Shown: positions 27,052-61,413, numbered from the stretch's first letter. The stretch: 64,000 nt of DNA from Lytechinus pictus (GCF_037042905.1 NC_087251.1:27034001-27098000); one strand, 5' to 3'. Notes: generated from the sequence alone by a model not told the origin. Translations and numbers: made by a program.

Positions 27052-27288
27052 TTATGGTATGGGAGGAATAGGGGTAGGTGGCATGTAATCGGCTATGGGA
27101 ACAAAATCAACATCGTAATTGAATGCTCTGGGCCCGACAACATCCAGGACCTTTGGTGATCGTAGAGCAGGGGGGCTGGGGAGTGCGATGACGGCTACAC
27201 GGAGACCATACTGTACCGCCTCTGTTGTGATTGGATGACCTTTATCAGCATCAGTGATGACGATGATGTCTGGTGTCATGGCAACAAT
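27052..27288 (-). CDS. HyuA-DUF917 exon 17 (terminal)
   Basis: PDIIVI...TTEAVQYGLRV...VGPRAF; TAA stop. Confidence 0.9.
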   Translation of the reverse strand: MVAMTPDIIVITDADKGHPITTEAVQYGLRVAVIALPSPPALRSPKVLDVVGPRAFNYDVDFVPIADYMPPTPIPPIP

Positions 27289-30200
27289 CTGTACAGATAA
27301 CATGAATTTAATTGGATTTCAGTAAGTCCGTTCACCAAGTGATTTACGTTTCTAGATGTCTTTTATCTGATAACCTAGTTACAAGGCATTCCTTTAACCC
27401 AATTTTAATTAAAACACCACTTTAATTAGAATCCAGTTTAGTGAATAAATTAGCTGCTGCTATGTCTGAAAAGCTTTATAAAACAATCACGTCCTAAATA
27501 TCACACAAAACTGTGTCAGTAAACATATTGACTGTGAAACATATTTTAAAGAATACAATTGGTTAATTGATGAATGTTGAAGGTGATTCTTTGAAACTTT
27601 ATAGTGCATAAAAATTGTTTTGCAAACTGTATATTACAATACTAAACCTTGGATTAGCTGATGAAATTGTGAATTATTTGCACATGGTAGTATGTCAATG
27701 TATCATTACCCATTGTTGAAGCATTGATGGATAAGATTAGTAAGTGCATGCTTTTCATATACAACATATGCAGTGCATAATTAAAACTTGTCTCAAGCAT
27801 TTCACTTATCACTCCAATTTTGTTTGTCAATTTAATGTCGTGTGGAAAATTGCCGTCTTTTTAAACGAGCTATTTCCTCTTAAAACAAAGTGATACATAG
27901 ATTTTTAGAACAAATGCTGAGCTCTCAAGCACCAAATTTCCAAGATTTCCTTCTAAGAAAGTAACACACACCTTCTCTTGGAGCACATTATCAACCGTTT
28001 TCCGTTCCTTGGCAACCAGATTTTCATTTTGGAAAGAGATGAGAAAGGAAACTCCTGAGTATTCCCCAGAACCTTCAACGAGTACGTCCCCTTTGTCGAA
28101 TCCACCTGTTGTCTCACGATTCACATTGGTTATCTGTGTGCGTAGAGAGAAAATATGGTAGGCAGTTAATTACTGCTGGTGATGAGGTAATGGGGCAAAC
28201 TGTAGTTTCACTGCGTCAGACACATCGCTTATGCTTAGCATAACAAAGAGGTGATAGTTTCTCACCACAATTGCAATAGATGACAAAGCTTGTGATGGCC
28301 AATCACATTTGCATTTTTTGCATACATTTGTCTGGCTCACATGCAGTTTACAAATAAATATATGCGCAATAAATTGAATAATACATACTGTGCACAGATG
28401 GATAAATGCATTGCAAAATATGTGGCTTCAACTTTATGACATCGCAATAGTTCTTATTAGTAAGTATTTTGATTAAATTTGGCTTGATAAAGTAAAATAC
28501 TCGGATGTGCTATGAATATGGTACAATTTTAAGCATTTTGCTTAGCAAAGTAAAATTCTTAGTAAAATACTTAATTAATCAACACTGTCAAATTAATACC
28601 AACAGGGGAAGGGGGGTGTTTCAAAAAGATTTAAGTGCAGTATAAAAGACATCATCGCATGATCAGATCATGCCATGAGGGTGCGCACTTGTGCGTATTA
28701 ATCAATAAGACTGCGCGTTGCACATTATGTACGTGTCGGCATTTAAGTGCAACCCTAAGTCATACTTAAATATTTGTGAAACACCCCCCGGGGCTCCAAA
28801 CCCAATCAGCAATCATCTGCTGAAAATAAGTTTGGTGGACCCTTTGTAACTTATTTGTGAGGAATGGTACTTTCTCATGAGAACTATCAACAAAGTGACT
28901 GAGAAAACTTTCCTTACCTTGCCAGAGACAAGAAGCACTCCATTGCCCGCCTGCACGACGGCCTGGATAGGATCTGAACTAGAGATTTGGGATGTCATCA
29001 CGACACGACCAAGATGCCAAGCACGACTGTAAGAATATGGTATAGTTGTGGCTGATATATCCTTCGCACTCAGTGGTGCTAAGACTACCCCTCCAGAACA
29101 TCTGTATGAAATAATGAAAAAAAAAATATTTATGGCATAATATTTACTCACTACAGAAAATTTCCAGAAGCAGAAAAATCAATTGATGAACATCAAGGGT
29201 AAAAACCATATATTAAAACGTATTTTCTTGAAATAATTTTGTATTTCAGAGGCTTCTTACCAACAAGTCTATAAATTCTGGTGTGATTTGAAAAATGAGC
29301 TACACTAATTACAACTATTTGAGAAGAAACCCAGCAGACTGTTGACTAGACTAGGCCTAGAAGATCTGCAAAAAACCTTCTCCCTTTCAAAGGACTAGGG
29401 ACAGTGTTTGATTCAATACCCAAGTTGGAAACATATCAGAGTCTTCATTTGTTTGTAATAGCTTTTTGTACATTGTCAGCCTGACCTATACGGAACTGTA
29501 ATGTGTTAATTTTGGTTTGACTTACTAATTGTGCTTTCTCTTGCAATGAGAAACCTTGATATCTCATCATTGAATGCCTTTCTGCATTAAGTGAATATAA
29601 ATTCTTTGAATGACTACAGCTAATAAAATATTGAATTTCAGTATGGTCTTACCCCATTTGCGTGCCGACAACGGTACGAAAGCAGTTTTCAACCTGAACT
29701 GAGTTTGCTGCCTCTGCTATCACTGACTGCTGACTACCGTCACTAACCAAGACAGCAGGATACAAGGGCTTCTTGTGAATCGTGGGAAGGAACATCTAAC
29801 AAAACAAAGCAACAAACACAAGAAATAACACTATAACATGACAAAAGATGCTGCATGGATTTTAATCGGGAACTGCTAGTTGTATTAACAAAGTCACATT
29901 TGATGCTGAAGCTTGAATCAACAGCTTGATTTTGATTCTGTACACCAACACCCTTTGCACCCACACCTCGCTAGCCACACCGACACCACATCACCACGCA
30001 CAACCACAGGTACATTAACACTCACATCAACACATACAACACCAACACCTATATTCAAAACCTACAACCACATTCACACCAATAATAACACTAACACCAG
30101 CACCAAAATTGAAATACTAGTCATACTTGTAATTCTGGGAAAGCTCTCCCAATGCCATCAGCCACAGCAACGCCACACACACACCAATACATACATTAAC

Positions 30201-33200
30201 ACCGACACGTACATGAAAACCAACACCTATATCAACACCCACAACCAATAATAACACTAACCTAACACCCAGTGCCTACACCAATACTGACATCCGTACC
30301 ATACTTGAAATGCCTAATCATACCTGCAATTCTGGGAAAGCTCTCCCCATGCCATCACAGTCTAAGATAGGCACATCTAGGTCGGCACCAGTAATGAGAG
30401 GTTCAATCGAGTTCAAGCCACCGATCTCCGCAGCTAATATTGCACAAATCTTGTCAGATGTAGAGTTTGAAGAACACAGAGTGTAGTCCTTCACAAAGAC
30501 AAGCCCATCGTTTAAACTGCTTTCAGCATTTTCTGTCATAACAATATTTGTAGATTGAAAATGAAGAAATATGTGATTAATTGTAGATTAAAGTGATCAT
30601 TTCACTTTGTTCTGATTAAAAAAATTCTCCTTTTGGTTCCTGAAAATGGGCTAAACATGAGGCTTATAGTGTAAAAATACCAACCCAAAAGTTTCAAAGT
30701 ATTATATTTACAGGATCAATTTTAAAACCTTGGAGATGTAAACCAAAGTTTGAAATAATTGGGAGTTGGTTTCAATGACTATGTGTATACAGGGAATCTG
30801 TGCACAACACATTAATTCTAGATGAACACAGCATGACCTACATACAGTGTGTACAAGGTATACACTGAATGTACAGTGCAGCTAATAGTGTGTGTATAGG
30901 AGATACACACAACAGAAGGCAGTCAAAATAGCCAACGGACTTTTTGAATTGGAGAAAACTGGTCATAAGCTGAACCCGTCTACTAGACGGTTCTCAAAAT
31001 CAGGCTAATAAATTGCTACTTGTATCTAAATTAGAGTTTTTCATCCTATATTGTGGTCTGTTTCAGGGTTTTTGAGGACAAATACAGGCACTCATACGCA
31101 CGTTTCAACTCAGTTTGAATTTTTTTTAAATCAGCTGCTCACAAAGTCAAACGATCCCTTTAAGCTGATCAACATGAATAGTTGGATTAAAAGAGGAATC
31201 TTGTTTCAATTATGATTATTTTCAAATACAGTTTACAAACCATGTTATATGAGGTAGATAACTGCTATGGATAGTAGTTATAGCTTGAATGAGACTCAAA
31301 ATCTATTTTTTTAAGGTTGATATCATACCCCTGCATGAATGAAATAAATATGTTCAATGAAACTTCATTAAGTACTGATTACTCAATTGCATTCACTTGC
31401 TATGGCTTCTATGAGAAAAGGACTTTCGAAATTCCATTATTCCCTTTCTGATTTTCATCATAGTCTCTTAATCCCCCCAATAAATAATCAATAGTGACAT
31501 TTCATCAGAATTATGGAATATCACCTTTCAATGTTATGAAAGCAATAATCTGTACATCATTTTCAGAAGATGGAAATTCCACCTTGGAGTCAAATTGATG
31601 TTCAAATAAGAACAAGAGCGTCGCTAAGGGGAGCACGTAATACGCCCGCCTGTAACGCGGAAAATGGAGTTATTTGACCAATAAACAAGAACAGTGGAAG
31701 GTGGCGACTTCACCTTTAACCTTCTGACCTCAAAATCAATAGAATTCCTGGGATCCATGGTGGTATCATACATACCAAATTATATGAGAGTAGGTTAAGT
31801 TAAACTAAAGTTATCATGAGTAGAAGAAATTAACCAGTTGTCTCACGATGTAGCAAACGTAGTGTGAAAGCGACGTTTCGTCTGCAAGCTGCTAGACTTC
31901 GTCAGGCAATGAGCAGCTGCTGCGCACGGGTTATATAGCGTCGGGAGCTATTGTCTGGCTCCACTCGGGCGTGAGCCGCGCTGTGATTGGCCGAAGCCGC
32001 TGGCCAATCAGGGTCCGCGCTGGTGCTTGGTGCCCGCTGGAGCGTGCACCGTGCGCTGTGATTGGCCGATGCGGCCGGCCAATCAGCATCTGCGCTGGTG
32101 TCAGGCACCTGCTGGTGCGGGCGCCGTGCGCTCTGAACGGTGGATGCAGTATGCCGTCGGATGGCCGGTAACCATGCATCAGGGATCTCAATGCCGCTGT
32201 CCCTATTGATATTGCTCGGGTGCAAACGGATCTGAATCGCTTCCTTAACGCGCCGCGTATACCAATGCTTATCATGAGCAACGCAGCTGACCTCATCCCA
32301 GTTAGGTGGATGATCGGAGTCCCAAGCATGTTCTGCAACAGCCGAGCTATCAGTGCGTCTAAGCCGAACATCACGGCGATGTTCCTTCATGCGTTCCCCC
32401 ACAGGTCTACCAGTCTCACCGATGTAGACTTTGTCGCAAGTCGAGCATGGGATCTTATAAACAACCCCATCGCGTCTGTCGGGGATCGGGCGGTCTTTCG
32501 GACGGACCAGCTGGCTGTGGATGCTGTCGGACTTGAATATAACTCGGATGCCATGCTTCTCCAAGCGCCGGCGGAGAAGATGCGCGATACCATCAACAAA
32601 TGGGATTACTATAGCGGATTTAAATTGCGCAGGCTGTTCGGACGGAGCGCTCTTCTTCTTAGCAACGCGGTTAACGAAGGAGCGCGGGTAACCGTTAGAA
32701 ATAAGAGCCGAGGTGATGTGTTGCTTCTCTGTAGCTGTGCAATTGGGCTTAGTAACGATGCGTGAAGCTCTGTCATAAAGACACTTCACTACACCGCGCT
32801 TAACGGACTTCGGGTGATGCGAATCATAAGCACCTCACCTTCCTAACCCGTTGCATCAAGAACACCGTTATCCCGAAAGATCTTAGAGTTCGCCCGCCAG
32901 TACCCACCAAGTCAGCACGCATCATCGCCGAGAGGACCTCCCGCCTTTTCCTTCGTGAAAGAATCCGCCTCACCCGCATGACTCTTAACTCTATCCGCGC
33001 CGAGATTGAGTCCAGTACTACCCTTGTCCGTTCCGCGCTCGCCGAAGAGCACTACAACAGTGCTCTCGAGCTTTTCGACGATATCTACCGCTACGAATTT
33101 GAGAAGTGCAAGTCCCGACAACAGGATAAGTATCGCAAGATTAGTACAGAGGGTAAGGATAGTTCCGTATGTGCCGATACTAGCTCTCGGGTCGTCAATT

Positions 33201-36200
33201 TGTCTAAATGCAAATTGACTTCTGATGAGAGTGCGCTGCTCGCCAAGGGACTTAACTTTTCAGTAGCCCCGAAGCGTGTTCCCGCTACCGAGATTGTTGC
33301 GAAGGTGGAATCCTCCATTCGTTCACTTGATGCCGAGACCATCGGCTCCGTAAGAAGAGAGATAAATGCTATCCTCTCCTCCGCCGAACCGCCTAAACCT
33401 AACATTACTCCCGGCATGCGCAAAGCCTTGAAATCGCTCAAGGAAGACGAGTCTATTATGATTTTGCCAGCAGACAAAGGCCGTGCCAGTGTTATTCTGG
33501 ACACCGATGTCTACCGCGCCAAGATGTCCGAGTTAATTGAATCCGGCCCCTATCGCGCTATCGGGAAGGACCCGACCGATCGCCTCTCCCGCAAGCTTAC
33601 CACTATTCTTCGCGGCTTTCACAAGAATGGTGACATCGATGATTCTACCTACCGTAAGCTTAAACCGTCGCAGAAGCAACCGCCCAGGATCTATGGACTA
33701 CCTAAAATCCATAAAGCTGACATTCCGCTCCGTCCGATTGTATCATGTGTGAGTTCGTTTGCTTACAACACGTCTAAGTATCTCGCTGATATTCTTGCTC
33801 CCTTAGTCGGGTCCAATGGACATGCTGTCCATAACTCTGCATCGTTTGTTGATTTCCTGCGCAGCGAAACCATACAGGAACACGAGGTCATGGTTTCATT
33901 TGATGTGGTGTCATTGTTTACCAATGTACCCATCGACGCCGCATGCAAGGTCGCACTTAGCAGACTCGAACGCGATGAGAGTCTACCCGAGCGCACACAG
34001 TTATCTCCGGCCCAGGTAACTGAGCTTTTGAGTTTTGTTTTACAATCTACGTATTTTATGTTTGCCGGCAATTTCTACGAACAGCAAGAAGGAGCAGCCA
34101 TGGGCAGCCCTGTTTCCGCAGTAATCGCTAACTTGTTCATGGAAGCTTTTGAGGAACGCGCGCTGAGTATTTGCCCACCCGACTGCGCCCCTAGAGTTTG
34201 GAAGCGATACGTAGATGACACGTTTATTATCACGCATAGATCCGCCGCCGATGACCTTTTGAGCCACATGAATTCGCAGCAGCCATCCATCCGTTTCACC
34301 ATGGAGATGGAGTGCAACGAGCGCATTGCCTTTCTAGACACTATGGTGCACCGTGACACCAGCGGCCGATTGTACACCACCATATACAGGAAGCCCACGC
34401 ACACCGATCAGTACATTGCTTATGATTCGCATCACCCGAAGTCCGTTAAGCGTGGTGTAGTGAAGTGTCTTTATGACAGAGCTTCACGCATCGTTACTAA
34501 GCCCCATTGCACAGCTACAGAGAAGCAACACATCACCTCGGCTCTTATTTCTAACGGTTACCCGCGCTCCTTCGTTAACCGCGTTGCTAAGAAGAAGAGC
34601 GCTCCGTCCGAACAGCCTGCGCAATTTAAATCCGCTATAGTAATCCCATTTGTTGATGGTATCGCGCATCTTCTCCGCCGGCGCTTGGAGAAGCATGGCA
34701 TCCGAGTTATATTCAAGTCCGACAGCATCCGCAGCCAGCTGGTCCGTCCGAAAGACCGCCCGATCCCCGACAGACGCGATGGGGTTGTTTATAAGATCCC
34801 ATGCTCGACTTGCGACAAAGTCTACATCGGTGAGACTGGTAGACCTGTGGGGGAACGCATGAAGGAACATCGCCGTGATGTTCGGCTTAGACGCACTGAT
34901 AGCTCGGCTGTTGCAGAACATGCTTGGGACTCCGATCATCCACCTAACTGGGATGAGGTCAGCTGCGTTGCTCATGATAAGCATTGGTATACGCGGCGCG
35001 TTAAGGAAGCGATTCAGATCCGTTTGCACCCGAGCAATATCAATAGGGACAGCGGCATTGAGATCCCTGATGCATGGTTACCGGCCATCCGACGGCATAC
35101 TGCATCCACCGTTCAGAGCGCACGGCGCCCGCACCAGCAGGTGCCTGACACCAGCGCAGATGCTGATTGGCCGGCCGCATCGGCCAATCACAGCGCACGG
35201 TGCACGCTCCAGCGGGCACCAAGCACCAGCGCGGACCCTGATTGGCCAGCGGCTTCGGCCAATCACAGCGCGGCTCACGCCCGAGTGGAGCCAGACAATA
35301 GCTCCCGACGCTATATAACCCGTGCGCAGCAGCGTCTTTGCTCATTGCCTGACGAAGTCTAGCAGCTTGCAGACGAAACGTCGCTTTCACACTACGTTTG
35401 CTACATCGTGAGACAACTGGTTAATTTCTTCTACTCAATCCTTCACCACGATGAACCTCTTCCACATCATAAAGTTATCATGTTAACAAGGACTGCAGGA
35501 GGGTACGATGAAAACATGTCAGTGTGACCTTGACCTTTGACTTTTTGACCTCAAAATCACTAGGCTTCCTGGGATCCATGCTAGTATACACTCCAAATTA
35601 TATGAGCCTAGGTTAAGTTAAACTGAAGTTATCGCATTTACAAGGAAAAGTGAACGGACGGACGGACGGACACCGAGTGTGATACCATAAAACGTCCCGA
35701 CCCGTCGCTGGGCGGGCGTATAAAAATGAAATAAGTAGAACAAGTTAATGAGGGTGTGATGAAAATATTTTTTGTGTGAATTTCCATCAAAGCCATTAAT
35801 TTATTAAACATTGAAATTACCTCATCAACATTTAGCCCCTTTTTAGTGCCTCGGCAATGTCTAAGCCTCCGAGACACGACACATTTTTCTTGGGGACAGA
35901 GAATGAGATCAAAACATTACCATCCAAGACCGTGATAAGATGCAAGTCACACAATCACCGTCTTGCCTTGGAAATAAAAAAAAGTACTCAAGACACCCAA
36001 AACTATATGATTTCACTAATGCGTTGAGGTGAACCTTCAAGGAAAGTAAATACCTAGAGGTGCTGCTTGATGGTGGACATCATCTGGGTTTGCAGACAAT
36101 ATATCCTGTAGGCAGGTGAGACCCCTAGGTATCTCTGTGCCAGAGACTAACTTCTCGATCAGTACAGCTGGAGCACCCATGAAAGCTACAGAAGGAACCT

Positions 36201-39200
36201 TTCCTTGCAGAGCTGGAGTTGTACCTAATCTGAAAGAACACAAAGTATTCTGCTATCATAAAAGGATCAGTGGGGGGGGGGGCTAAATAAAATTTTATGC
36301 AATAACTTCACAATATTTTTTATTTGGAGGCCCAAAACACATTTCCTTATATATCTCATGTATATTATGGGAACTTTTTCATAATTGGGTTAATGGGCTC
36401 ATACATATTTAATCATGTTCGATGGTTCCAGATTTAAAGCAAAGTTTCATTGTGATAAATCACAGAAAATGTGGCTTCCAATGAAACTTTGTGTAAGGCA
36501 TTCGGTTTTAGAGGGAATAATGTTGCCAAACATTTTTCCTATCTTCCTCATCAGATTACTTGACAAGTTTTGATAATATAGATTACTTCTGCAAATGGAG
36601 AATACACAAAATATACATATATACAAGAAAGTTTGCTATTGGCACAGAATCTGCATGATATGACATATATTCCTCTTCTTTTATTATCATTAAACACTTA
36701 TAAATCAGCAGATATCTGACAGAAAATTCAAGTAATTTTTATGACAAGCTGGATGCCAACAAGTTTACTTGCAGCTAGGTGATAAATGCCCCCTTCCCCC
36801 CACGTTTCAGAGATGATCCAGCAAAAGTTGTCAAAAGACAACATACACATAAATTCCATAGAAATATCTTTTTTCTGGCTTCTTAACCAATCAAATTATA
36901 TGCTCCAGATATCCCAGACTTAGGGTGAATAAAAAAATAGATGTACACGTAAAATCAAGTCATACCTTATGTTTGTACATTTAAAGTTTTTTCGGATCAC
37001 AAAGTATCTATTTTTCTGCAATATGCTAGATGGATTTATTCATATCTTTATAGGAGGGCTGTGCTCATCAATACTACATGAAACATGAAATAAGGGTCAA
37101 CGTAGTATAATGATGAATAATAAGCAGCCACATACAGCACCTAAGCATTGACCAGATATTTGACTTAATAAATTTTGAAAATGACTCTTGTAACATTCAA
37201 AATTTAGCATTTAATATGTGTTTACCCCTACTCATTCACGACTTGACCAAGCAATATCATTTTTACATGAAAAAAGTTAGGGTAGAAACATGTGTCATCA
37301 TAATGATAAAAATGATCATAATCTTACATGTATTTGATATTTGAAAGAAATAACTTCTCGACAAATTAGGTGTAAATTGAGTGAGTTGTTCTTACCTCTC
37401 CGGGGCAATGATCCTGATTCTCTTGCCACTCCTCAGTTGTTTAAGAGCCCTCAGTTTGCCCATATAGGGGCTTCCACCTCCCCCAGATCCAAGTAACCCA
37501 GCTCCAATAGTGATGTACTCAATGTCTCGTTCACTGATGATCCATTCACCCGTCGATGGATCAATGTGGGGTTGATATTCTAGTGGAGAATGAGAATGAA
37601 AGTGAGTGAATGTTGTGAAAGTGAAAGAGAGAATGATCATGATAGGGAAAGAGAGATCGAGAATGAGAAGGAGGGTGAGGATAAAAGTGAGATTGAGGGC
37701 AAGAGTGGGCATTAGAATTATAATGAGTGTTGTGAAAGTGAAAGAGATTGCGAGAGGGAGAGATTGAGTGTGAGAATGAGGGTGAAGATGACAGTAATAT
37801 TGAGGGTGAGAGTGGGAATTAGAATTATAATGAGTGAGAGTTGTGAAAGTGAGAGTGAGGGCAAGGGTGAGACTGAGATTGAAGGTGGGGTGATTGCAAT
37901 TAAACCACAGTATACTCAACTCCATGTATTAATCACAGTGAAACTGCTACTCACAGCCCCGGCTATACCTTGTCCATTTTTGGAAAAAAAGTGATCGATC
38001 CCAAAACATCTCATGATAATGAATGTTGGTGGCACATGTATAATGAAATGCACATAGGGTGAGGGTAAGAGAGGTTAAGAATAAGAGTGGGATTTCGATT
38101 GAAGGTGAGGGGGAGATTGCAATTAAGGGTGAGGGTTTGACTGAGAATGAGGATGGTATGAGAGTGAAAGTGAGATGTAGAAGTAGTAGATACAGAAGTG
38201 GTAGATGTAGATGTAGTAGATGATGAAGAAGTACTGTATAAGCTGTTATTTTTCGCGTACAGAATTTTTCGCAAATCGAGGGGTCCCGACATTTTCGCAG
38301 GTTTTTGAATTCGTGATCGGAAGGTGTACCAAGCACTTTCACATCATTTCAGAAGCAAAAATAGTGCAAAACATTTGCAAAATTATGCTCCTCAAACCCC
38401 ATGCTGACGTGTCCTTTGTACAAAAATATGTTCCTGTAAAAACAGTTACAAAGTGTGAAAAAAGTGGCTTGAATTTCACTTTTTTTTGTACCTTTAAATC
38501 TGAAAATTCATCATGTCACAGTTTGATCTGTAAGAGTAATCTTTGGAAGTTGTGTTTTGTTAGATTCATATTTAAAAAGTTGGTTTCAGTGCAAAAATGT
38601 TGAATTTTGTGAACAAAATCTCACACCTTCAAAAGCTCTGGTCATGTGACTTATGAATATTAATGAGTATGCATGCAAATAGCTGCCAATATAAGTGTGT
38701 ATAGAGATGACAATAAAATCAAATTTTTTTATGGTAAATACTTTATAATATTGCAGTGAATAAATAAATATTGATAAACACATGTCAGGAAATAATTTAG
38801 ACTCTGATTTTGTTGAGAAATAAAAAAGTGAAATTCTAGCTAACTTTTTGAATTACTAACCATACTTTTTCAACCTCATTTTTGTACATATATAGGTGCT
38901 TACTTATCTCCACAACTGAGCATTGTGGCGTGCGCCTGTAATCCAAGCTATGTGGGAAAGTTACAAATTGATGCAGTGGTTCGAGCCCTGGTCACGTCTT
39001 TCGGATGGTGACGTTAAAGGTCGGTCCCAGACCACGTATGTTCACGGCCTCAACTCAGTGGAGCGCGCCATTGAAAGGCCTTTTCGCCTAGCAATATTGT
39101 TAGCGACGTTTGTTAGCATTACTTTGCTCACTCTCCAAAATGTCTGCGACATTAAAATTCTAAACAAGTGGAATGCCTCTGGCCGTCTCACCTGCATCAC

Positions 39201-51200: not shown

Positions 51201-54200
51201 CCATCATCATCATCATCATCATCATCATCACCATCAGCATCTTCATCATCATTACCATCATAAACATCATTACCATCACAACTACCATCACCACCACTCG
51301 TCCTCATGATCACCATATATCTCATAAAGATCCTGGCTCTGACAAAAATCAACAAAACCAAGTGATTTTGTAAAACGGAATATGTCATCTTTAAACCAAA
51401 CCCACCTGATGATGGTGCCATCATTTTGCGTCATGAAGAACGGACATTGAATGTTCAATTCCTGCAGAGCCTGACTGAATGCACGGACTGTTTGCCTGCA
51501 CAGCGGCTTCAGTGACTCATTCAAGATGGTGGCGTTCTCCCTTTCAAGCAATCCCATTTGTCCTATCTCATGAGAGAGAGTCACGCTTGCCTCTTTGTAA
51601 TGTTCTCTTATAAAAGCCCTAACCTGAAAATTCAAAATATTTTTGAAAACGTTGCACAAAATAACTTTTTGACATGTATAAAAATACAGCTCACAATAAA
51701 ATGCATACAGTAATTTCCAAATAAATAATATTGAGCATGACACATTAATTTGAAAATGAAGATGGATCACAGAACACCATTATTCTTAATAGGTAAAGGT
51801 AAACTTTCATTTATACACTACCCTTCCGTAAGCTTAATTCTCGCCCGAGTCAAACCAATTTTTTTGACCAGATCTTAAAAAAACCTACAGTTATGCTCAA
51901 AAGTTAGTGATCCCAACCACAAAATACACTCCTTCATGCTGAGTGTTGAAGAAGATGACACTACAATGTTCGGCGAGCCCAGAGAAACAAACTTTATTGA
52001 ACGTATTATCTTATCACCTAGGACAATTAAATATCTAAAACATGGCAGAATTTTGACACTTTAAATAAAGTTCATTTAGTGGTGGGGTTCACAAACTTTT
52101 GAGCACCATGGTAGAACATCTTCTAAGTCAGAATTCTCCCAAGTCGAACAGGTTTCTGTGGTCCCAAAATAGTACTTATACCCCATTTAGATCTACGGAA
52201 AATCTAGAGTGCCTCCGGAGGCTACCGCAAGTCGTTAGATCTAAACTGTCTCGGCACAAAGCACAAATCTGAGGGAAAATACACTCTAGACAGTCTAGAA
52301 CAATCGCAAGAAAACATGGCATGATCCACTGTTGGACTGTAGATCTAAACGGTCGCGGCGTAAATGTGGCATAGAAAACCAAAGTCCACATGGTCTTGAT
52401 CGTTGTGCAGCATGCACTTTCTCCCTTGACTGACATTGACCAAAGGAAAACAAAAACAAAGAAGAGAAGAAAAATGAAAAATGAATCGAGACGTAATTAT
52501 AAACAAAGAATACATGAGAAAATCGATTAAGGAGATGAAAGAAGAAATTAAACAAAGAAATACATGATAAATTATAGAAAAAAAAACAGAAGGAGAAAAC
52601 AAAGAAATATATAACATTTTGTAGAAAAAGGAAAGAAGAATTAAAACAATACAAAATAATTGATAGAACAAAGAAATAAAGAAAATCTGAACAAAGAAAT
52701 ACACAAGAATTAATAGAACAAATGATAAAAGAAGAGTTAAAACATTGAAATACACAGAACTGAATGAAGAAAAAATAATAAAAAACAAAGAAATACATAA
52801 GATTTGAAAGAAAAGAGAATGAAAGAAGAATTAAAACACATCTAGAAATACATAAAAAAATCAAAAAGAAAAAAGGAGAGAACAAAATATGAAACATGAG
52901 AATTGATAGATGATGAAAGAATAAAAACAAGATAATATATAAGAGTCGATAGAAGAAGAGAAATACACAAGAATTAATATAACAAATGATAAAAGAAGAG
53001 TTAAAACATCAAAATACACACATAAAAACAAGATAATATATAAGAATCGATAGAAGAAAAGTAATACACAAGAATTAATAGAACAAATGATAAAAGAAGA
53101 GTTAATACATTAAAATACACAGAACTGAATGAAGAAAAAATAAAATCAAAAAGAAAAAAGAAGGAGAGAACAAAATATGAAACATGAGAATTGATAGATG
53201 ATGAAAGAATAAAAACAAGATAATATATAAGAATCGATAGAAGAAAAGATAAGAGAAAAATCAAAACAAAGAAATATATAAGAATCCATAGAAGAATAGA
53301 TGAAAGAAAAAATAAAACAAAGAAATACATAATAATTAATAGAAGAAAATATGATAGAAAATTCAAAACAATGAAATACATAATTGATTGATGAAAGGAG
53401 AAGAGATGAATTGAAAAATAGAAATACATAAGATTTGATAGAAAAGAGAGTGAAAGAAGAATGAAACATAATTATTATAGAAATACAAAAGAATCTGAAA
53501 ACGGAAGGAGCGAACAAAATATACATGGGAATTAATAAAAGATGAAAATATTAAAATAAGGAGATACATAAAAAATTATAGAAAAAAAGAAGATAACAAT
53601 AAAACCAGAAAAATACATAGGAGTTGTTGGAAAAGATGAAAAAATAGAAATGTTTCAAAATTGATTGAGCGCGCTTTTCCTCCTCACTGGAAAGGTACTA
53701 TCACAGCCCATCTCGCGATTACCACAGACGTTTGTTCTAATGTAAATGGCTCTCGCATGTGTACCTCGTGTTTTGAAAAGGAATTTCATGCCGTGTTCGT
53801 TCCAGACGATAGTCTAGTGTGACACTAGAGAGAAACAGATCTAAACGGGGTATTAGACGAAGTAACCTGATAAAACTGCAAGTGGTTCACTTTCACTAGT
53901 ATACCATGAATATGCAAATTTCAGTCTAAATGCATACAATGTATGAAAGCTGAGGGGGTGGCATACCCAACATAGGAATGCCACTAAACCTAAATGTTAA
54001 TCAGAAAAACCGTCATAAATCAATCATAATTTTTTTTTTAATCAATCACTGGGTTTTGTGTTACAGGACCCTGTTTTTTTAATTATGGCACATAAGCTTA
54101 AATGATGGATTTGGTTTTTTTAATTAATCAACACCTAAGAGTAATAGGCTAGAACCAAGTTTCATAAACCATAAAATATCAACTAATAATGTAATGGGTT

Positions 54201-57200
54201 TTTTATGCCAAATTTCATCAGCTGATATGAGTTGAATGCATCGATGGATGCGGGAAATGGTCTGTTAGACTGTCTGATTGAAAAGAAACAGCCTGGAAAC
54301 AATGAAGCATTTAATAAAGTACTACATGCTTACTCCCTGCAGAATAATGCAGTACAGACTTCTCATAAAAAGTAAAATTTTCTAAAATTTAGTGACAGAT
54401 GAACTTTTTATTTTATTAGTAAAATTAGTTGGAATATAAATTCTAATCATACTTTGGTAAAGCTTTAACCACACAGGGACTATGTCTAAGGTGAAGGAGG
54501 GGATGGGGTAATATTTGACCTCAAATCAAATTCATAATCTGGAAAACAAAAAAAAATCAAACTCCTCAATGTGCAAATGCATGTACTCACAACCCTGCTT
54601 GTATTGGAGGACATCAGACAATTTATGCCAGTGTGGGGCAGAATACAGCCTATGTTTTAAGCCCAATAAACTTGACTTTCTTTAATACAAGACACTCAGC
54701 TAGCAAATGCCAAAAATGCTTATAACATTTTCATTGTTGTGATTTGTATCTTACATGTTTTTGATACTGTAGGTGTGATATACAAACTGCCACATTAGCT
54801 TTTTGTATTGGATGGGATCTTTGAAAACATTGAGAAATGTCAATCCAAATAAAAGACACAGCTTTCATCAATAGGGTTGATTACAATGTTCAAACTAACA
54901 CTTTTGTCTTCTCTGTAAGCAGGGGAAGTGAACCACCTGCTACTTTATTAATGTTTTTAAACAGTGTTTGTCCTAGACACTCAAAGTACCATTTAAATGC
55001 TAATAAGTTGTACTTTCTAGTGATGTAATAAATATTAATTCTCACTGATTTTCACAAACAGACCAGGGGCCACGGAATGAATCTGAAAGTAAATGAAGGG
55101 GGGGGGGCTGAACATGCAATATATCACAATTTGATGGTCATATGCACATATTCAGACACGGTTATTGAAAAATGTGAAAAAAAGGCAAGGCTGAAGCCCC
55201 AAGCCCGCTGTTCCGCTGCCCATGCAGATACATGTTTGGTAATTAGGTTTTATTTAAGTGGGAGAATAAGAAAAAAACATTAAAAGGCCTATTCATGTTT
55301 ACCTGGAGTTCTTGGTCGCTATTGACAGGAGCAAAGACACAGCTTACTACGATGTTGGTGATACCTCTTTCTCTTAGTTCATTCAAGCATGACAGTACCT
55401 CGTCCAAGTCAAGACTAGTAATGGTCTGGCCATCATAGTTAAAGCCACCATTCAAGAAGTAATGAGAATCATACACTGCCTGAGATGCAGGAGAAATGAT
55501 ACCAAAGTGATTAACCCACTGCCTCTCAGAACATAATTTCCTCTGTATGAAGTCTTTGAGAATGAGAAAACAGCTTAACAGACACTGATAAAGTAATGGC
55601 GCAAGTAGCACAACACTGGTAATTATCCAGAAGCCTACATCGCCATTTTAATTCACCTGTGCATTATTTGTTTTATCGAATGGGTCAACAATAAAACCCA
55701 ATTTTGAAGAATTGCAAGAAGCACGGCTGCTTTGAAACATCTTCAATAACTATGGTAGCACAACTGAAAACTACCATCTTCTGTTATGTATTTGGGATAA
55801 AATCAATCTTCCATGACCAGGGCCAAAAAACGCAAAGGTTAACGATTAATCGCTAAATGAAACTGCTTATAATAATAATAATAATAATGAAACGTTTTTG
55901 TATAGCACAAAATACATAAGCAAAGTTGCATGTCTCTAAGCGCTTTTTACAAAAGGAGTGGAGATGGAGGGGAGAGCACTGGGTTCTTACATTGTTTACA
56001 AAATGGTGAATAAATGTGTTTTCAAGCTATTTCTAAACTTTTCGTATGGTTGTATATTTCTAAGATATTTTGGCAGATTATTCCATTAAATAGCAGCTGC
56101 ATGTGAAAATGATCTTTCCCCATATGACTTTGTCACAGTATGTGGGACCTGTACTAATGACTTTTTACTTGAACGTAGCATTCTGTCAGGTTTATATGGT
56201 GTTAACAATTCAATGAGATACAATGGAGCAAACTGATGGAAACATTGGTAGGCGAATAGAAGTACTTTGTAGTGTATGCGGGATTGGATAGGTAGCCAAT
56301 GTAAGTTTTTTAAGACTGGGGAAATTGGTTCATGTTTCTTTGTTCGTGTTACGAGTCGCGCTGCTCAATTTTAAACGAGCTGTAATCTTTGAATTTGACG
56401 AGACGAAAGACCAAAAAGCAAGCTATTACAAAAATCCAAATGGCACATAACAAAAGCAAGAATTAGGCGCTCAGTAGTTGTCTTATTCAAAAAGGTGCGA
56501 ATTTTGCCTATTTTATGCAGTCCATAAGATGCTGACCTACATTTTTGTGAAACAAAATGTTCAAAGGTGAATTTAACGTCAAAAGTAACCCCTAAGTTTT
56601 TACATGTTTTGGTTGCGTGAACAAGAGTGCCATCGAGATCTAGTGTCAGTATTGGGTTACTTACTCTATAGCGAGAAGAATCATGAAGAAATTCACACTT
56701 GATATTATTGAGTTTCAAACCATTTAGTTGAGACCACTCTTTGACTGATCGTACACAATTTGCCTATCAAGATCATTGTTGCATGCACATTTTGCTCAGT
56801 AGACTGACTAAGAACCAATCAAGACAGTTCTTTCAAATTAGCAATTAATCACTAACCTTTGTGTACAGGGCCCATATGTCTCTATGGGGTCCTCATGCAA
56901 AACAAAATAGTAAAAGAATGCCTCCTCCATCATCCCCTTGCAATTATACCTGCATGCTAATAATCCTGCTTAAAAAAAAAGTCATTACCTGCTTGAGGTC
57001 ATCTGGGAATTCAACACATGGTTCAAGAGCATGTGAGGCTGTCCCACACAGTCTTAAAATGGCAACACGAGTCAGGTGACGCCGTTGCAATACTGCGTTC
57101 ACAAAGTGAGTGGTCCCAATGTTCACCTGGCGGAAGTTTGTTGGACTACCTGTTTCAAATTGTCAGAAAAAGCATTGTGGATGTTTTAACACAGACCAAA

Positions 57201-60200: not shown

Positions 60201-61413
60201 TAGGACTCTATACATCACAATGCCAGGCGTTAGGGGAGTGACCATACGTACAGTATATTACTTTCACTCCCCAGACGCCTCCAGGCTATGTGTGAGTGGG
60301 TCCAAATCAACATCTGAAAATTAAAGATTCCACTGCCACTATACAGTCTACACTTAAGACTGGAATATAGTGACACTGTTTACACGGCCAGGGATGGTAT
60401 TACTTAAAGGTCAAGTTCACCTCAGAAAGATGTTGATTTGAATCAATAGAGAAAAATCAGACAAGCATAATGCTGAAAATTTAATCAGAATTGGATGTAA
60501 ATTATACTAGTAGGCCTATAATATATCTAACATATTTTTAGTTAAAGCCCTGGTTTTAATTTTTGAGATACACCTACTCGACTTTAAATCCCTGTAGATA
60601 CCCTAAAAAAAAAAAAAATTAATATATATATATAAAAAAATTAATAAATAGAAAAGAAAAAGAGAAAAAGAAAAAAAAAAGAATAAGAAATATTTGAATT
60701 TTACTTTATATTTTTTTTTCAAAGAAAACAACGTGAATAATACAATATTTATGATGGCGAAAATAGTCAAATTGACTGGTTGCCAAATAAAAAGAAGAAC
60801 CCCCCCACTCACTATTTCTTTTGTTTTTTAAAGTTCAAATTATACATTATTTCAATTTTTGCCGATTTGACAATAAGGACCAACTTGACTGAACCATAAA
60901 AACTTAAGCAATGGTAATTCAACATGTTCAGGGAGAAATAAAACTTTGTTTCACAGGACAATGAGGAGAAAATAAGAATATTTCATATTTCATATAACAA
61001 AATACAAAAGAAATAGTGAGTGATGTCATCACTTCCCTCAGTTGCATATCGACCGGAATGTGCATATAACTGTTTTGTGAAATTAAGCAAAACTTTAAAA
61101 TGTCATAACTTTCTTATTTTACATCCGATTTTGATGAAATTTTCAGTGTTATGCTTTTTTGGATATTTCTCTGTTTATTCAAATCAACTTTTTGTTGGGG
61201 TGGACTTGTCCTTTAAACACTGATCTTGTGTTAACATTCACCTTGTTCCTGGAGTACTCTGAAAAGGCTCTGTATGGAGTGTTTGACTCCCCCAGTCACA
61301 TCTTGGGTGGTTGGTTCCTTCACCACGCCCATAACACGGCCCTCGCAAAGGCACACGGCGTCTGTGTAGGTTCCTCCCACGTCCACGCCTACTATGAGAT
61401 TCGAATCTACCAT
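27052..61413 (-). CDS. Hydantoinase/oxoprolinase-A (HyuA-like) - DUF917 fusion protein, 17 exons, 1010 aa
   Basis: 17 exons, all GT-AG and phase-consistent, total 3033 nt with no internal stop. HyuA motifs: GVDVGGTYTD, IGTTHFVNA, GLLERENATILN, QNDGT, SGPTNSMRGA, DIGGTSTD, SIGLGGGS, ANAVGA. DUF917 motifs: LGSGGGG, MGAP, EIGGLNS, DGMGRAFPELQM, QNENL, PDII, YGLRV. Confidence 0.9.
27972..28133 (-). CDS. HyuA-DUF917 exon 16
   Basis: ITNVNRETTGGFDKG...FQNENL. Confidence 0.9.
28611..28788. mobile_element. Harbinger-like MITE
   Basis: GGGGGGTGTTTCA.AAAGATTTAAGT / ACTTAAATATTTGTGAAACACCCCCC. Confidence 0.6.
28918..29101 (-). CDS. HyuA-DUF917 exon 15
   Basis: SYSRAWHLGR...LLVSGK. Confidence 0.9.
29653..29795 (-). 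CDS. HyuA-DUF917 exon 14 (frame absent from ORF track)
   Basis: Hand translation: MFLPTIH...VENCFRTVVGTQMG. Confidence 0.87.
30324..30532 (-). CDS. HyuA-DUF917 exon 13
   Basis: EIGGLNS...DCDGMGRAFPELQ. Confidence 0.9.
30592..31159. mobile_element. Kolobok-like MITE (TTAA TSD)
   Basis: ttaa|AGTGATCATTTCACTTTG...CAAAGTCAAACGATCCCT|ttaa. Confidence 0.6.
31870..31907 (-). ncRNA. Second hammerhead core in the inverted arm
   Basis: Exact reverse complement of 35347-35384. Confidence 0.65.
31902..32832 (-). pseudogene. Inverted partial copy of the Penelope ORF (thumb + GIY-YIG only)
   Basis: Near-identical to the C-terminal ~300 aa of the main ORF; a 5-nt indel changes the last residues. Confidence 0.88.
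32831..35362 (+). CDS. Penelope-type reverse transcriptase + GIY-YIG endonuclease (5'-truncated; first internal ATG at 32978)
   Basis: Frame is open from the inversion junction (HLTFLTRC..VIPK). RT motifs PRIYGLPKIHK, SFDVVSLFTNVP, GAAMGSPVS, YVDD. Endonuclease GVVYKIPCSTCDKVYIGETGR. Confidence 0.93.
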   Translation, partial: HLTFLTRCIKNTVIPKDLRVRPPVPTKSARIIAERTSRLFLRERIRLTRMTLNSIRAEIESSTTLVRSALAEEHYNSALELFDDIYRYEFEKCKSRQQDKYRKISTEGKDSSVCADTSSRVVNLSKCKLTSDESALLAKGLNFSVAPKRVPATEIVAKVESSIRSLDAETIGSVRREINAILSSAEPPKPNITPGMRKALKSLKEDESIMILPADKGRASVILDTDVYRAKMSELIESGPYRAIGKDPTDRLSRKLTTILRGFHKNGDIDDSTYRKLKPSQKQPPRIYGLPKIHKADIPLRPIVSCVSSFAYNTSKYLADILAPLVGSNGHAVHNSASFVDFLRSETIQEHEVMVSFDVVSLFTNVPIDAACKVALSRLERDESLPERTQLSPAQVTELLSFVLQSTYFMFAGNFYEQQEGAAMGSPVSAVIANLFMEAFEERALSICPPDCAPRVWKRYVDDTFIITHRSAADDLLSHMNSQQPSIRFTMEMECNERIAFLDTMVHRDTSGRLYTTIYRKPTHTDQYIAYDSHHPKSVKRGVVKCLYDRASRIVTKPHCTATEKQHITSALISNGYPRSFVNRVAKKKSAPSEQPAQFKSAIVIPFVDGIAHLLRRRLEKHGIRVIFKSDSIRSQLVRPKDRPIPDRRDGVVYKIPCSTCDKVYIGETGRPVGERMKEHRRDVRLRRTDSSAVAEHAWDSDHPPNWDEVSCVAHDKHWYTRRVKEAIQIRLHPSNINRDSGIEIPDAWLPAIRRHTASTVQSARRPHQQVPDTSADADWPAASANHSARCTLQRAPSTSADPDWPAASANHSAAHARVEPDNSSRRYITRAQQRLCSLPDEV
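35149..35318 (+). promoter_or_regulatory. Penelope pLTR promoter-like region (4 CCAAT boxes + TATA)
   Basis: Two ~75-bp repeats each with CTGATTGGC...GCCAATCAC; TATATAA at 35312-35318. Mirrored in the left arm. Confidence 0.55.
35347..35384 (+). ncRNA. Minimal type-I hammerhead ribozyme core (Penelope pLTR)
   Basis: CUGACGA-A-[GUCU a GCA gcu UGC AGAC]-GAAAC-GUC. Stem III is reduced to the ACGU palindrome. Stem I has only 2 obvious base pairs. Confidence 0.65.
36054..36229 (-). CDS. HyuA-DUF917 exon 12
   Basis: FMGAPAVLIEKL; phase 2 in, phase 1 out. Confidence 0.85.
37396..37579 (-). CDS. HyuA-DUF917 exon 11 (start of DUF917)
   Basis: GEWIISERDIEYITIGAGLLGSGGGGSPY. Confidence 0.9.
37582..38231. 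repeat. GAGT/GAGA-rich low-complexity intronic tract
   Basis: Directly visible. Confidence 0.75.
38915..39040 (+). mobile_element. SINE-like 5' fragment with a 7SL/Alu-domain-like head
   Basis: GTGGCGTGCGCCTGTAATCCAAGCTA, B-box-like GGTTCGAGCCC, then CTTTCGGATGGTGACGTTAAA. Confidence 0.5.
39162..39767. mobile_element. HINE-like element, same family as 4005-4979, opposite orientation
   Basis: AACAAGTGGAATGCCTCTGGCCGTCTCACCTGCAT...ATGCAGGTGAGACAAAAA; fewer core repeats. Confidence 0.75.
41460..42791. mobile_element. Related G-run MITE with CGCGCTTCGCGCTCGC repeats
   Basis: Right end GGATCCGCCCCTG; left end degenerate. Confidence 0.5.
43764..44180. repeat. GTAGAT/GTAGAA simple repeat
   Basis: Directly visible; continues at ~38175-38231. 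Confidence 0.85.
44263..44512 (-). CDS. HyuA-DUF917 exon 10 (end of HyuA module plus linker)
   Basis: LAYLPG...RIKVKAVGSL followed by a polar linker. Confidence 0.87.
45304..45462 (-). CDS. HyuA-DUF917 exon 9
   Basis: SANAVGASLSQVSGTVD...AVANGA. Confidence 0.9.
45800..46520. mobile_element. piggyBac-like non-autonomous element (degenerate)
   Basis: TTAA-bounded ends; imperfect TIR TCCTTTTTAACTGGG / CCCAATTTAATAACGG; G-run subterminal motifs. Confidence 0.4.
46807..46917 (-). CDS. HyuA-DUF917 exon 8 (absent from ORF track)
   Basis: Hand translation: DVPVIVVGGGSILI...IKPPHYQ. Confidence 0.9.
47088..47240 (-). mobile_element. SINE central-domain-like fragment (Deu/Nin-like)
   Basis: Minus strand GAAGAATAGGGG...CCCCGGTGTAGTGG resembles the conserved SINE core as I recall it. 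Confidence 0.35.
47576..48587. mobile_element. HINE-like element, older relative of the same family
   Basis: AACAAGTGGAGCGCCTCTGGCAGTC...GGAAAAGCGGCGCCTAT...GAGACAAAAA with several GTTCATTGACCCTAAATGACC units. Confidence 0.72.
48714..48932 (-). CDS. HyuA-DUF917 exon 7 (absent from ORF track)
   Basis: Hand translation: VGPRSVGYRLLSEGLTFGGNTLTATDIAVAAG...IDQIK. Confidence 0.9.
49190..49260 (-). mobile_element. tRNA-derived SINE head remnant
   Basis: A-box TGGTCCAGTGG and B-box GTTTGAATCC at tRNA-like spacing; no intact cloverleaf. Confidence 0.55.
49443..49630 (-). CDS. HyuA-DUF917 exon 6
   Basis: DIGGTSTDVG...GFPRES...MPDVQSIGLGGGS. Confidence 0.92.
50261..50486. mobile_element. Hairpin MITE
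   Basis: ATAGAGTACTGAAG...TGCCATGGTGTCATGGC and its reverse complement. Confidence 0.7.
50527..50609 (-). CDS. HyuA-DUF917 exon 5
   Basis: PVRTFSSGPTNSMRGAAHL. Confidence 0.9.
50705..51300. repeat. Degenerate (CAT)n microsatellite
   Basis: Directly visible; explains the poly-D, poly-H and poly-M ORFs. Confidence 0.95.
51406..51623 (-). CDS. HyuA-DUF917 exon 4
   Basis: SHEIGQMGLLERENATILN...QNDGT. Confidence 0.9.
52440..53650. repeat. Purine-rich low-complexity tract with internal direct repeats
   Basis: AAAGAAATAC-like units; blocks ~52697-52790 and ~52857-52960 recur at ~53060-53245. Confidence 0.85.
55303..55479 (-). CDS. HyuA-DUF917 exon 3
   Basis: GGFNYDG...VFAPVNSDQE; GT-AG boundaries. 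Confidence 0.9.
55866..56760 (-). mobile_element. 5'-truncated L2-clade LINE (RT C-terminus + 3' UTR + (TAT)n tail) inside a Harbinger-like MITE
   Basis: KNLGVTFD...LDFCNSLLFGL...LQLV; 3' end GTAAAAAGCGCTTAGAGAC; host MITE arms at ~55818 and ~56872. Confidence 0.8.
56989..57149 (-). CDS. HyuA-DUF917 exon 2
   Basis: VNIGTTHFVNAVLQRR...LRLCG; GT-AG boundaries. Confidence 0.9.
59442..60288. mobile_element. Young non-autonomous DNA transposon with 8-bp TSD (hAT- or Zisupton-like)
   Basis: TAGCCTGG...CCAGGCTA termini; TSD TGTGTGAG on both sides; ~270-bp near-identical TIRs. Confidence 0.85.
60408..61212. mobile_element. Kolobok-like MITE (TTAA TSD)
   Basis: ttaa|AGGTCAAGTTCACC...GGTGGACTTGTCCT|ttaa. 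Confidence 0.75.
61242..61413 (-). CDS. HyuA-DUF917 exon 1
   Basis: caacATGg start; MVDSNLIVGVDVGGTYTDAV; phase-1 donor GTGAAT. Confidence 0.9.

Follow-up and report, generated by a model that had tools for sequence, protein, structure and literature searches.

A sea urchin gene fusing a HyuA-like ATPase to DUF917: a candidate two-module ATP-dependent hydrolase of small cyclic amides or ureides

The fusion gene and its closest described relatives

The closest described systems of the gene reported here are the HyuA/HyuB lactamases, i.e., 5-oxoprolinase (OPLAH), N-methylhydantoinase (NMHase), HyuAB and caprolactamase (CapAB), in which a hydantoinase-A (HyuA)-type ATPase works with a HyuB subunit. 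In the caprolactamase study (PMC8453981), the P1 and P2 motifs are assigned to the gamma- and beta-phosphate sites, and the lactim is proposed to be phosphorylated in CapA and hydrolysed in CapB, which is reached via a tunnel. The present gene is located on the minus strand (61413..27052) of a 64,000-nucleotide stretch of the genome of the sea urchin Lytechinus pictus (GCF_037042905.1 NC_087251.1:27034001-27098000); this whole stretch is termed the window, and positions are counted from its first letter. The gene encodes a HyuA-like N-terminal half (N half) fused to a C-terminal DUF917 half (C half). The N half likewise contains the Hydant_A_N and Hydantoinase_A domains, P1/P2 and the fold of the lactamases (6yra, 9h03/7hk5), and both probably work on one principle, with activation by ATP in the first module and conversion in a second one tightly bound to it. 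However, the urchin protein has neither Hydantoinase_B nor Hydant_A_C, and its partner module is DUF917.

Three further groups are related to one or both halves: (i) the thiohydantoin desulfurases (NF058529, NF058532), which belong to the same Pfam families as the C half but stand alone in ergothioneine-type clusters, whereas the urchin-type DUF917 is always paired with or fused to a HyuA-like ATPase, (ii) CV_3147 of Chromobacterium violaceum (2o3i), a stand-alone structural-genomics protein without functional information that has the same fold as the whole C half, and (iii) the ATPase subunits of acetone and acetophenone carboxylases (5svb/5svc/5m45 chain B, 5l9w chain B), which belong to the top matches of the N half in sequence as well as in fold. 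In case of the latter, HyuB-type Mn/Zn subunits carboxylate ketones, while the urchin protein contains no such subunit. Both modules and the invariant motifs are shared by bacterial gene pairs, e.g., of Anaerolineaceae (L003), Allorhizobium (L011), Roseibium (L018) and Streptomyces (L071). They differ from the urchin protein in being separate genes without linker and animal-only insert, often with 2-5 DUF917 paralogues per ATPase, in operons with transporters and regulators.

With moderate confidence, the locus is interpreted as an intact, conserved single-copy gene which arose by ancient fusion of proteins encoded by adjacent genes in bacteria and which encodes a two-module ATP-dependent enzyme. 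By analogy with the lactamases, this enzyme is most likely a hydrolase of a small cyclic amide or ureide.

Hydantoinase-like and DUF917-like pieces are already visible in the stop-to-stop open reading frame list of the region, and individual exons match by themselves the Pfam families Hydant_A_N, Hydantoinase_A, S-Me-THD_N and S-Me-THD_C, the latter two formerly known as DUF917. A search for longer proteins with the last exon yielded full-length relatives of about 1000 amino acids (aa), the closest being P0001 of Lytechinus variegatus (1009 aa; annotated as "uncharacterized protein"). Used as tblastn query against the window, P0001 gave 17 colinear minus-strand matches (E 4e-12 to 2e-40), and a splice-site search found GT-AG borders at 16 of 16 introns with consistent phase throughout. 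The spliced translation from the ATG at 61413 to the stop codon ending at 27052 comprises 1010 aa without internal stop, 974 of which are identical in P0001. Coordinates, 17 exons, open frame and motifs of an earlier note on this DNA were thereby all reproduced. The exons are as follows:

Exon 1, 61242..61413, minus strand, 172 nt: start ATG at 61413, P1 motif DVGGTYTD, start of Hydant_A_N
Exon 2, 56989..57149, minus strand, 161 nt: Hydant_A_N
Exon 3, 55303..55479, minus strand, 177 nt: Hydant_A_N
Exon 4, 51406..51623, minus strand, 218 nt: end of Hydant_A_N, start of Hydantoinase_A
Exon 5, 50527..50609, minus strand, 83 nt: Hydantoinase_A
Exon 6, 49443..49630, minus strand, 188 nt: Hydantoinase_A, P2 motif DIGGT
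Exon 7, 48714..48932, minus strand, 219 nt: Hydantoinase_A
Exon 8, 46807..46917, minus strand, 111 nt: C-terminal part of the HyuA-like half, VVGGGS motif
Exon 9, 45304..45462, minus strand, 159 nt: C-terminal part of the HyuA-like half
Exon 10, 44263..44512, minus strand, 250 nt: end of the HyuA-like half and disordered linker (about residues 532-575)
Exon 11, 37396..37579, minus strand, 184 nt: start of S-Me-THD_N (DUF917), glycine loop GSGGGGSPY
Exon 12, 36054..36229, minus strand, 176 nt: S-Me-THD_N, FMGAPAVLIEK motif, start of the animal-only insert
Exon 13, 30324..30532, minus strand, 209 nt: S-Me-THD_N, AEIGG and DCDGMGRAFPELQ motifs
Exon 14, 29653..29795, minus strand, 143 nt: junction of S-Me-THD_N and S-Me-THD_C
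Exon 15, 28918..29101, minus strand, 184 nt: S-Me-THD_C
Exon 16, 27972..28133, minus strand, 162 nt: S-Me-THD_C, FQNEN motif
Exon 17, 27052..27288, minus strand, 237 nt including the stop codon: end of S-Me-THD_C

The gene is a single locus within a large contig, and its two S-Me-THD_N (PF06032) exons are the only matches to this family in the entire genome (812 Mb, 368 contigs). All 96 columns that are invariant in an alignment of 35 sequences, reaching from urchin to sponge and protists, are retained in the window protein. The 35 differences between the window protein and P0001 reside in less conserved columns (mean conservation 0.42 vs 0.58 for all sites). The orthologue of a related urchin (P0002, 1017 aa) is encoded on an assembled contig of 3415 nt and must stem from spliced RNA, since such a contig is too short to hold the introns. 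Several other orthologues are on assembled contigs barely exceeding the open reading frame, and others are Trinity-style or transcriptome shotgun assembly-style records; these are transcripts of orthologues rather than of this copy. A search of sequencing runs with window positions 44200-50700 retrieved no run recorded as RNA and only shares of up to 0.15.

Pfam analysis of P0001 revealed Hydant_A_N (residues 8-178, 115.3 bits, cut-off 25.2), Hydantoinase_A (198-369, 124.7 bits, cut-off 22.9), S-Me-THD_N (597-794, 142.2 bits, cut-off 27) and S-Me-THD_C (PF20906; 800-996, 189.6 bits, cut-off 27). Hydantoinase_B (PF02538) was matched neither by P0001 nor by the window exons, in agreement with the architecture proposed in the earlier note. 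P1 (DVGGTYTD, residues 11-18) and P2 (DIGGT, 280-284) are both present and invariant in the 35 sequences, as are present in the window protein the DUF917 motifs GGGG, DxDGMGRAFPELQ and FQNE. The N half comprises about 530 aa and the C half about 430 aa. An AlphaFold2 model of P0001 built on the same alignment (predicted local distance difference test, pLDDT, 86.5; predicted template modelling score 0.86) has linker 532-575 as its sole disordered part. For the N half, Foldseek retrieved NMHase 9h03 (1.3e-27), the ATPase subunits of acetone and acetophenone carboxylases and caprolactamase 6yra, and sequence searches of the PDB retrieved acetophenone carboxylase gamma, N-methylhydantoinase, caprolactamase (filed as 5-oxoprolinase) and acetone carboxylase beta. 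The C half matched 2o3i in both the Foldseek and the PDB sequence searches, in the latter as the only entry. A protein-atlas search returned DUF917 clusters only.

In animals, the DUF917 N-domain is extended by an insert of some 45 residues (residues ~676-722; window ~36054-36229 and 30324-30532), which none of the aligned fungal and bacterial sequences has. The corresponding region (residues 133-156) has low confidence in a model of P0004, a predicted DUF917-only protein of Strongylocentrotus purpuratus. This protein (P0004/P0005) comprises 446 aa, or 537 aa in another source, and is 78 % identical to the window C half. A second locus for it was not found in the L. pictus genome, and it may represent a partial gene model or a lineage-specific duplicate. 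The P0004 model (pLDDT 84.6) superimposes on 2o3i with Z 39.0 and a root-mean-square deviation of 2.2 over 342 residues (VIA; Foldseek 8.9e-19); the next matches have Z of at most 5.8 and concern small beta-barrel parts. DUF917 was also considered as a diverged HyuB, but no HyuB-type chain appeared in the Foldseek or wide VIA search of this model; a distant kinship may still exist.

The genome's OPLAH-type gene is found on another contig, minus strand (G000:C2:59935355-59974839), and has Hydant_A_N and Hydantoinase_B exons; the PF02538 matches at G000:C2:59.935-59.949 Mb adjoin other Hydant_A_N exons. Since the fusion protein has no Hydantoinase_B and a separate OPLAH-type gene exists elsewhere, the fusion gene is not a 5-oxoprolinase, as had been stated in the earlier note.

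Searching with P0001 yielded 2737 proteins of 554-1766 aa at E ≤1e-10 (among 8000 candidates scored). Among the 120 matches listed, most align over 98-100 % of P0001 with 39-84 % identity (coverage is 79-97 % in a few), the four Pfam families are present in nearly all, and every match with a named organism is from an animal: echinoderms, hemichordates, amphioxus, corals, anemones, hydrozoans, placozoans and a sponge, furthermore many molluscs, a brachiopod, a nemertean, a priapulid and a sea spider. The gene is thus already predicted publicly as "uncharacterized protein" in the sister species and dozens of further animals, its architecture being visible in public domain tables, and the term orphan used in the earlier note does not apply, since orthologues are annotated in dozens of animal genera. 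An exhaustive search of representative proteins gave 12349 matches at E ≤0.001 and 974 at E ≤1e-30. Ten of these were looked up by name and included fused forms of Anaeramoeba, Pelomyxa, a marine protist transcriptome, the basidiomycete Sanghuangporus and the sponge Sycon, so that the expected fusion in fungi was encountered in one fungus.

A FastTree phylogeny of the N half, a quick method which leaves the deep order unresolved, included 136 rows: the window protein and 23 named animal proteins, with roughly one taken from each genus, 5 further eukaryotes with names, 39 unnamed proteins, those 67 bacterial loci (out of the 80 treated below) that had a stop-free full-length match, and, as outgroup, a canonical HyuA. 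The 24 rows from animals are all contained in a single clade (38 rows, support 99), in which 14 unnamed rows are dispersed among animal subgroups; the fungal row belongs to a separate clade (support 100), and the bacteria are placed on one side of the tree. This tree argues for a single animal origin and speaks against a recent transfer.

Adjacent gene pairs in bacteria

When prokaryotes were scanned with one genome per species, at least 569 relatives came to light, and the best 80 loci were retained. Each of these loci contains a HyuA-like gene of about 515 aa with 44-51 % identity to the urchin N half. At 74 loci it is accompanied, before or after and on the same strand, by adjacent DUF917 genes (30-38 % identity to the C half), which corroborates their earlier description as operon neighbours. 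One adjacent DUF917 gene is present at 37 loci, two at 34, three at 2 and five at 1 locus, while 6 loci have none; in 3 of these 6, the HyuA-like gene is situated at a contig end. A fused gene was not detected in the 80 bacterial loci, and where both halves share the same frame (L006, L039, L052), a stop codon separates them.

In some Chloroflexota, i.e., L035:4794-11907 (metagenome-assembled genome of Anaerolineales), L022, L031 and L074, one HyuA-like gene is flanked by up to 5 tandem DUF917 paralogues, and these arrays lie inside an Opp-type transporter operon. This organization suggests that one ATPase serves several DUF917 specificity modules in these bacteria.

The flanks of 30 loci were scanned for Pfam families; the counts are lower bounds due to crude calling of open reading frames at high GC and many flanking frames without Pfam family. 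Most frequent were parts of Opp/Dpp-type ABC transporters (13/30 loci) and MalT-like or LuxR regulators (10/30), followed by TonB-dependent receptors (3/30), and Asp/Glu/hydantoin racemase, amidase and nitroreductase (2/30 each). Creatininase, Peptidase_M24/creatinase, a canonical HyuA+HyuB pair and an NCS1 permease were each found at a single one of the 30 loci. Judged from these gene neighbourhoods, the bacterial counterparts point to uptake and breakdown of small nitrogen compounds. The frequent association with NCS1 permeases, as stated in the earlier note, was not recovered among these nearest bacterial loci, where Opp/Dpp-type ABC transporters prevail instead.

Complex prediction for the HyuA-like/DUF917 pair of L003 (Anaerolineaceae) gave 0.84, compared to 0.04 for the best of 3 controls; the 0.84 mark is reached by 51 of 78 solved complexes and by 2 of 108 mismatched pairs. 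At least 80 % of contacts recur between runs, with a partner pLDDT of 89 or more. The predicted interface involves DUF917 residues 67-79 (MGAPxVxxEK) and HyuA-like residues 87-94, 153-154 and 187-190, and includes family-invariant motifs. PDB searches retrieved no similar solved complex for this pair. The role of DUF917 as partner of the HyuA-like module, put forward in the earlier note, gains support from this model in so far as a physical partnership is predicted for the bacterial proteins.

Proposed mechanism and competing explanations

In the proposed enzyme, the HyuA-like module, a shortened ASKHA ATPase of the hydantoinase-A/oxoprolinase-A type, would spend ATP on phosphorylating a small cyclic amide or ureide at its lactim oxygen, the substrate possibly being of the lactam, hydantoin or cyclic-peptide-like kind. 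The DUF917 module, predicted to pack on the HyuA-like module via family-invariant motifs, would then displace the phosphate with water, whereby the ring would be opened or converted. DUF917 would take the place which the HyuB subunit holds in 5-oxoprolinase, N-methylhydantoinase and caprolactamase. An obligate two-module enzyme of this kind is suggested by the combination of fusion in eukaryotes, adjacency in bacteria, a predicted heteromer contacting via invariant motifs, and the occurrence of more than one DUF917 paralogue beside a single ATPase. Since the chemistry named for this family removes a sulfur leaving group hydrolytically from a ring carbon, DUF917 may also be suited to displacing the phosphate of a phospho-lactim.

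Several observations weigh against this proposal. On the side of the ATPase, the Hydantoinase_A match of P0001 is limited to profile positions 1-173 of 291, Hydant_A_C is not matched by P0001 in Pfam, and the 1010-aa translation contains no PGP string that could represent the GxxPGP adenosine motif of CapA; the corresponding C-terminal part of the HyuA-like half is occupied by the invariant VVGGGS motif. In case of DUF917, the structure gives no clue to the chemistry, because the sole fold match (2o3i) has no assigned function. The sole activities named within the DUF917 family are those of thiohydantoin desulfurases, whose genes occur without HyuA-like partner (see below), and DUF917 chemistry therefore needs no ATP in principle. 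The complex prediction concerns a bacterial pair rather than the urchin protein, and its value is a model confidence score and no measurement. A literature search yielded no biochemical data on any HyuA-associated DUF917 protein, and no functional study of the DUF917/S-Me-THD family or of the animal fusion gene; one preprint refers to DUF917 proteins as lacking experimental characterisation.

A wider and more tentative proposal, which is regarded as possible rather than probable, is that HyuA-like/DUF917 proteins form a third class of ATP-driven ring-converting enzymes operating without HyuB. One ASKHA kinase module would supply interchangeable DUF917 modules (up to 5 per ATPase in bacteria) with cyclic amides activated by phosphorylation. 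Fused in early eukaryotes, it would have been kept by most invertebrate phyla and lost in vertebrates, insects and nematodes, and would clear a cyclic nitrogen compound whose catabolism is undescribed in animals. Candidates for this compound are (thio)hydantoins derived from thiohistidines, hydantoins or allantoin-like ureides, and cyclic dipeptides.

Among the alternatives to a two-module hydrolase, the one faring best, albeit unlikely, is that the DUF917 half represents the whole enzyme and the HyuA-like half an ATP-driven activase, chaperone or regulator which does not phosphorylate the substrate. Analogous arrangements are GlmL/MutL for glutamate mutase and the activators of 2-hydroxyacyl-CoA dehydratases. 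Weak matches to the MutL, BcrAD_BadFG, CoA_E_activ and GlmL models, Foldseek matches to the dehydratase activators 4eht and 1hux (~2e-5), the characterised DUF917 relatives without ATPase gene, and the single HyuA-like gene that can serve up to 5 tandem DUF917 genes would agree with such a role. However, all activase-type matches remain under the cut-offs and are expected of any ASKHA fold, whereas HyuA-type subunits that phosphorylate their substrate are matched much more strongly (1e-27 to 1e-20; Pfam 115-125 bits).

Still more doubtful is an anabolic or carboxylating direction, i.e., an ATP-dependent carboxylase, ligase or cyclase akin to acetone and acetophenone carboxylases. The gamma subunit of acetophenone carboxylase provides the best PDB sequence match of the N half (5l9w_B, 5.1e-23), its family the best NCBIfam match, and acetone carboxylase beta is among the top Foldseek matches. 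Yet these carboxylases need a HyuB-type metal subunit, which is missing from the fusion protein, all scores are far under the equivalog cut-offs (94 vs 1500 bits), and the bacterial neighbours comprise uptake systems and catabolic genes of the amidohydrolase type.

For an ATP-dependent (thio)hydantoin hydrolase or desulfurase in the turnover of thiohistidines (ergothioneine/ovothiol), a pathway raised in the earlier note, the present results leave only a low probability. Members of DUF917 bear desulfurase names in Pfam and NCBIfam, and the C half matches both NCBIfam models, i.e., NF058532 (S-methyl thiohydantoin desulfurase equivalog; 58.1 bits, E 7e-16) and NF058529 (thiohydantoin desulfurase equivalog; 51.6 bits, E 7.5e-14). 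These scores are below the cut-offs of 450 and 440 bits, respectively, reaching about one eighth of them, and the HyuA-adjacent DUF917 genes of bacteria fail as well (0 of 5 genomes pass, best 106 bits). Of 301 alphaproteobacterial genomes sampled, 2 contained true desulfurases (599 bits): one has the gene positioned between those for an aromatic amino-acid lyase and urocanase, while in the other its surroundings include an aromatic amino-acid lyase, an amidohydrolase and a betaine-type ABC transporter. Such a layout is that expected for ergothioneine breakdown. In neither genome is a HyuA-like gene found near the desulfurase gene, and no ergothioneine-type gene was seen beside the 30 bacterial loci examined.

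The urchin C half shares 20-22 % identity with the true desulfurases, compared to 33-43 % with HyuA-adjacent DUF917 proteins. Common to desulfurases and the C half are the GGGG loop, N-E of FQNE and P-D of VPDL. The desulfurases, however, carry DAVGDMRAHPTGD in place of the urchin-type DxDGMGRAFPELQ, differ at AEIGGxNS, and have neither RYGLRV nor VGPRAFGY. Thus, the link of DUF917 to desulfurases holds as the name of the Pfam and NCBIfam families, but scores, motifs and gene context do not carry it over to the HyuA-associated subfamily, and a thiohistidine substrate receives little support from them. The animal phyla possessing the fusion gene overlap those reported to hold OvoA, which according to PMC4768315 is found in Porifera, Placozoa, Cnidaria, molluscs, echinoderms and hemichordates and was lost in nematodes, Drosophila and bony vertebrates; such a pattern is, however, common to many genes lost in ecdysozoans and vertebrates.

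The weakest alternative, i.e., a pseudogene, bacterial contamination or a recent horizontal transfer, could appeal to a protein family that is mostly bacterial and to the 44-51 % identity of the N half to bacterial proteins, but is rendered extremely improbable by the open frame across 17 exons with canonical introns, the complete set of invariant columns, the single locus in a large contig, the spliced RNA of the P0002 orthologue, and the animal clade, the 16 introns and this clade also bearing out the earlier judgement against contamination and recent transfer.

Other features of the window and biological significance

Intron 12 contains a GC-rich insert (31916-35362; GC 0.50-0.53 vs about 0.35 around it) with an open frame of 852 aa on the plus strand (32804-35362) that matches RVT_1 with 30 bits. 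The insert is bracketed by an inverted repeat of 917 nt with 100 % complementarity (31916-32832, 34417-35333). The insert may be a Penelope-like retroelement, as a GIY-YIG-like stretch suggests, although Pfam did not confirm this label. The perfect inverted duplicate could be an assembly artefact.

On the plus strand at 13941-19302, four open pieces match positions 1-90, 85-253, 325-407 and 406-461 of the cytochrome P450 profile. These matches indicate a multi-exon P450 gene upstream of the fusion gene and on the opposite strand.

Long low-complexity, microsatellite-like tracts extend over 50700-53600, 37600-38350 and 43700-44250 (introns 4, 10, 11). The open frames that result from them are long but spurious, with a high content of H, D, S, I and L, and the tracts also cause a strong skew of both GC and AT at 50-54 kb.

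Taken at sequence level, the HyuA-like/DUF917 fusion and its bacterial counterparts appear to constitute a strongly conserved two-module enzyme, reaching from bacteria to sea urchins and amphioxus, to which no substrate has been assigned in any organism. A practical route to this substrate leads through the bacterial operons, in which dedicated binding proteins and regulators are encoded. Identification of the substrate would fill a conserved metabolic step that vertebrates lack, and would show whether DUF917 can replace HyuB in ATP-dependent lactam chemistry.

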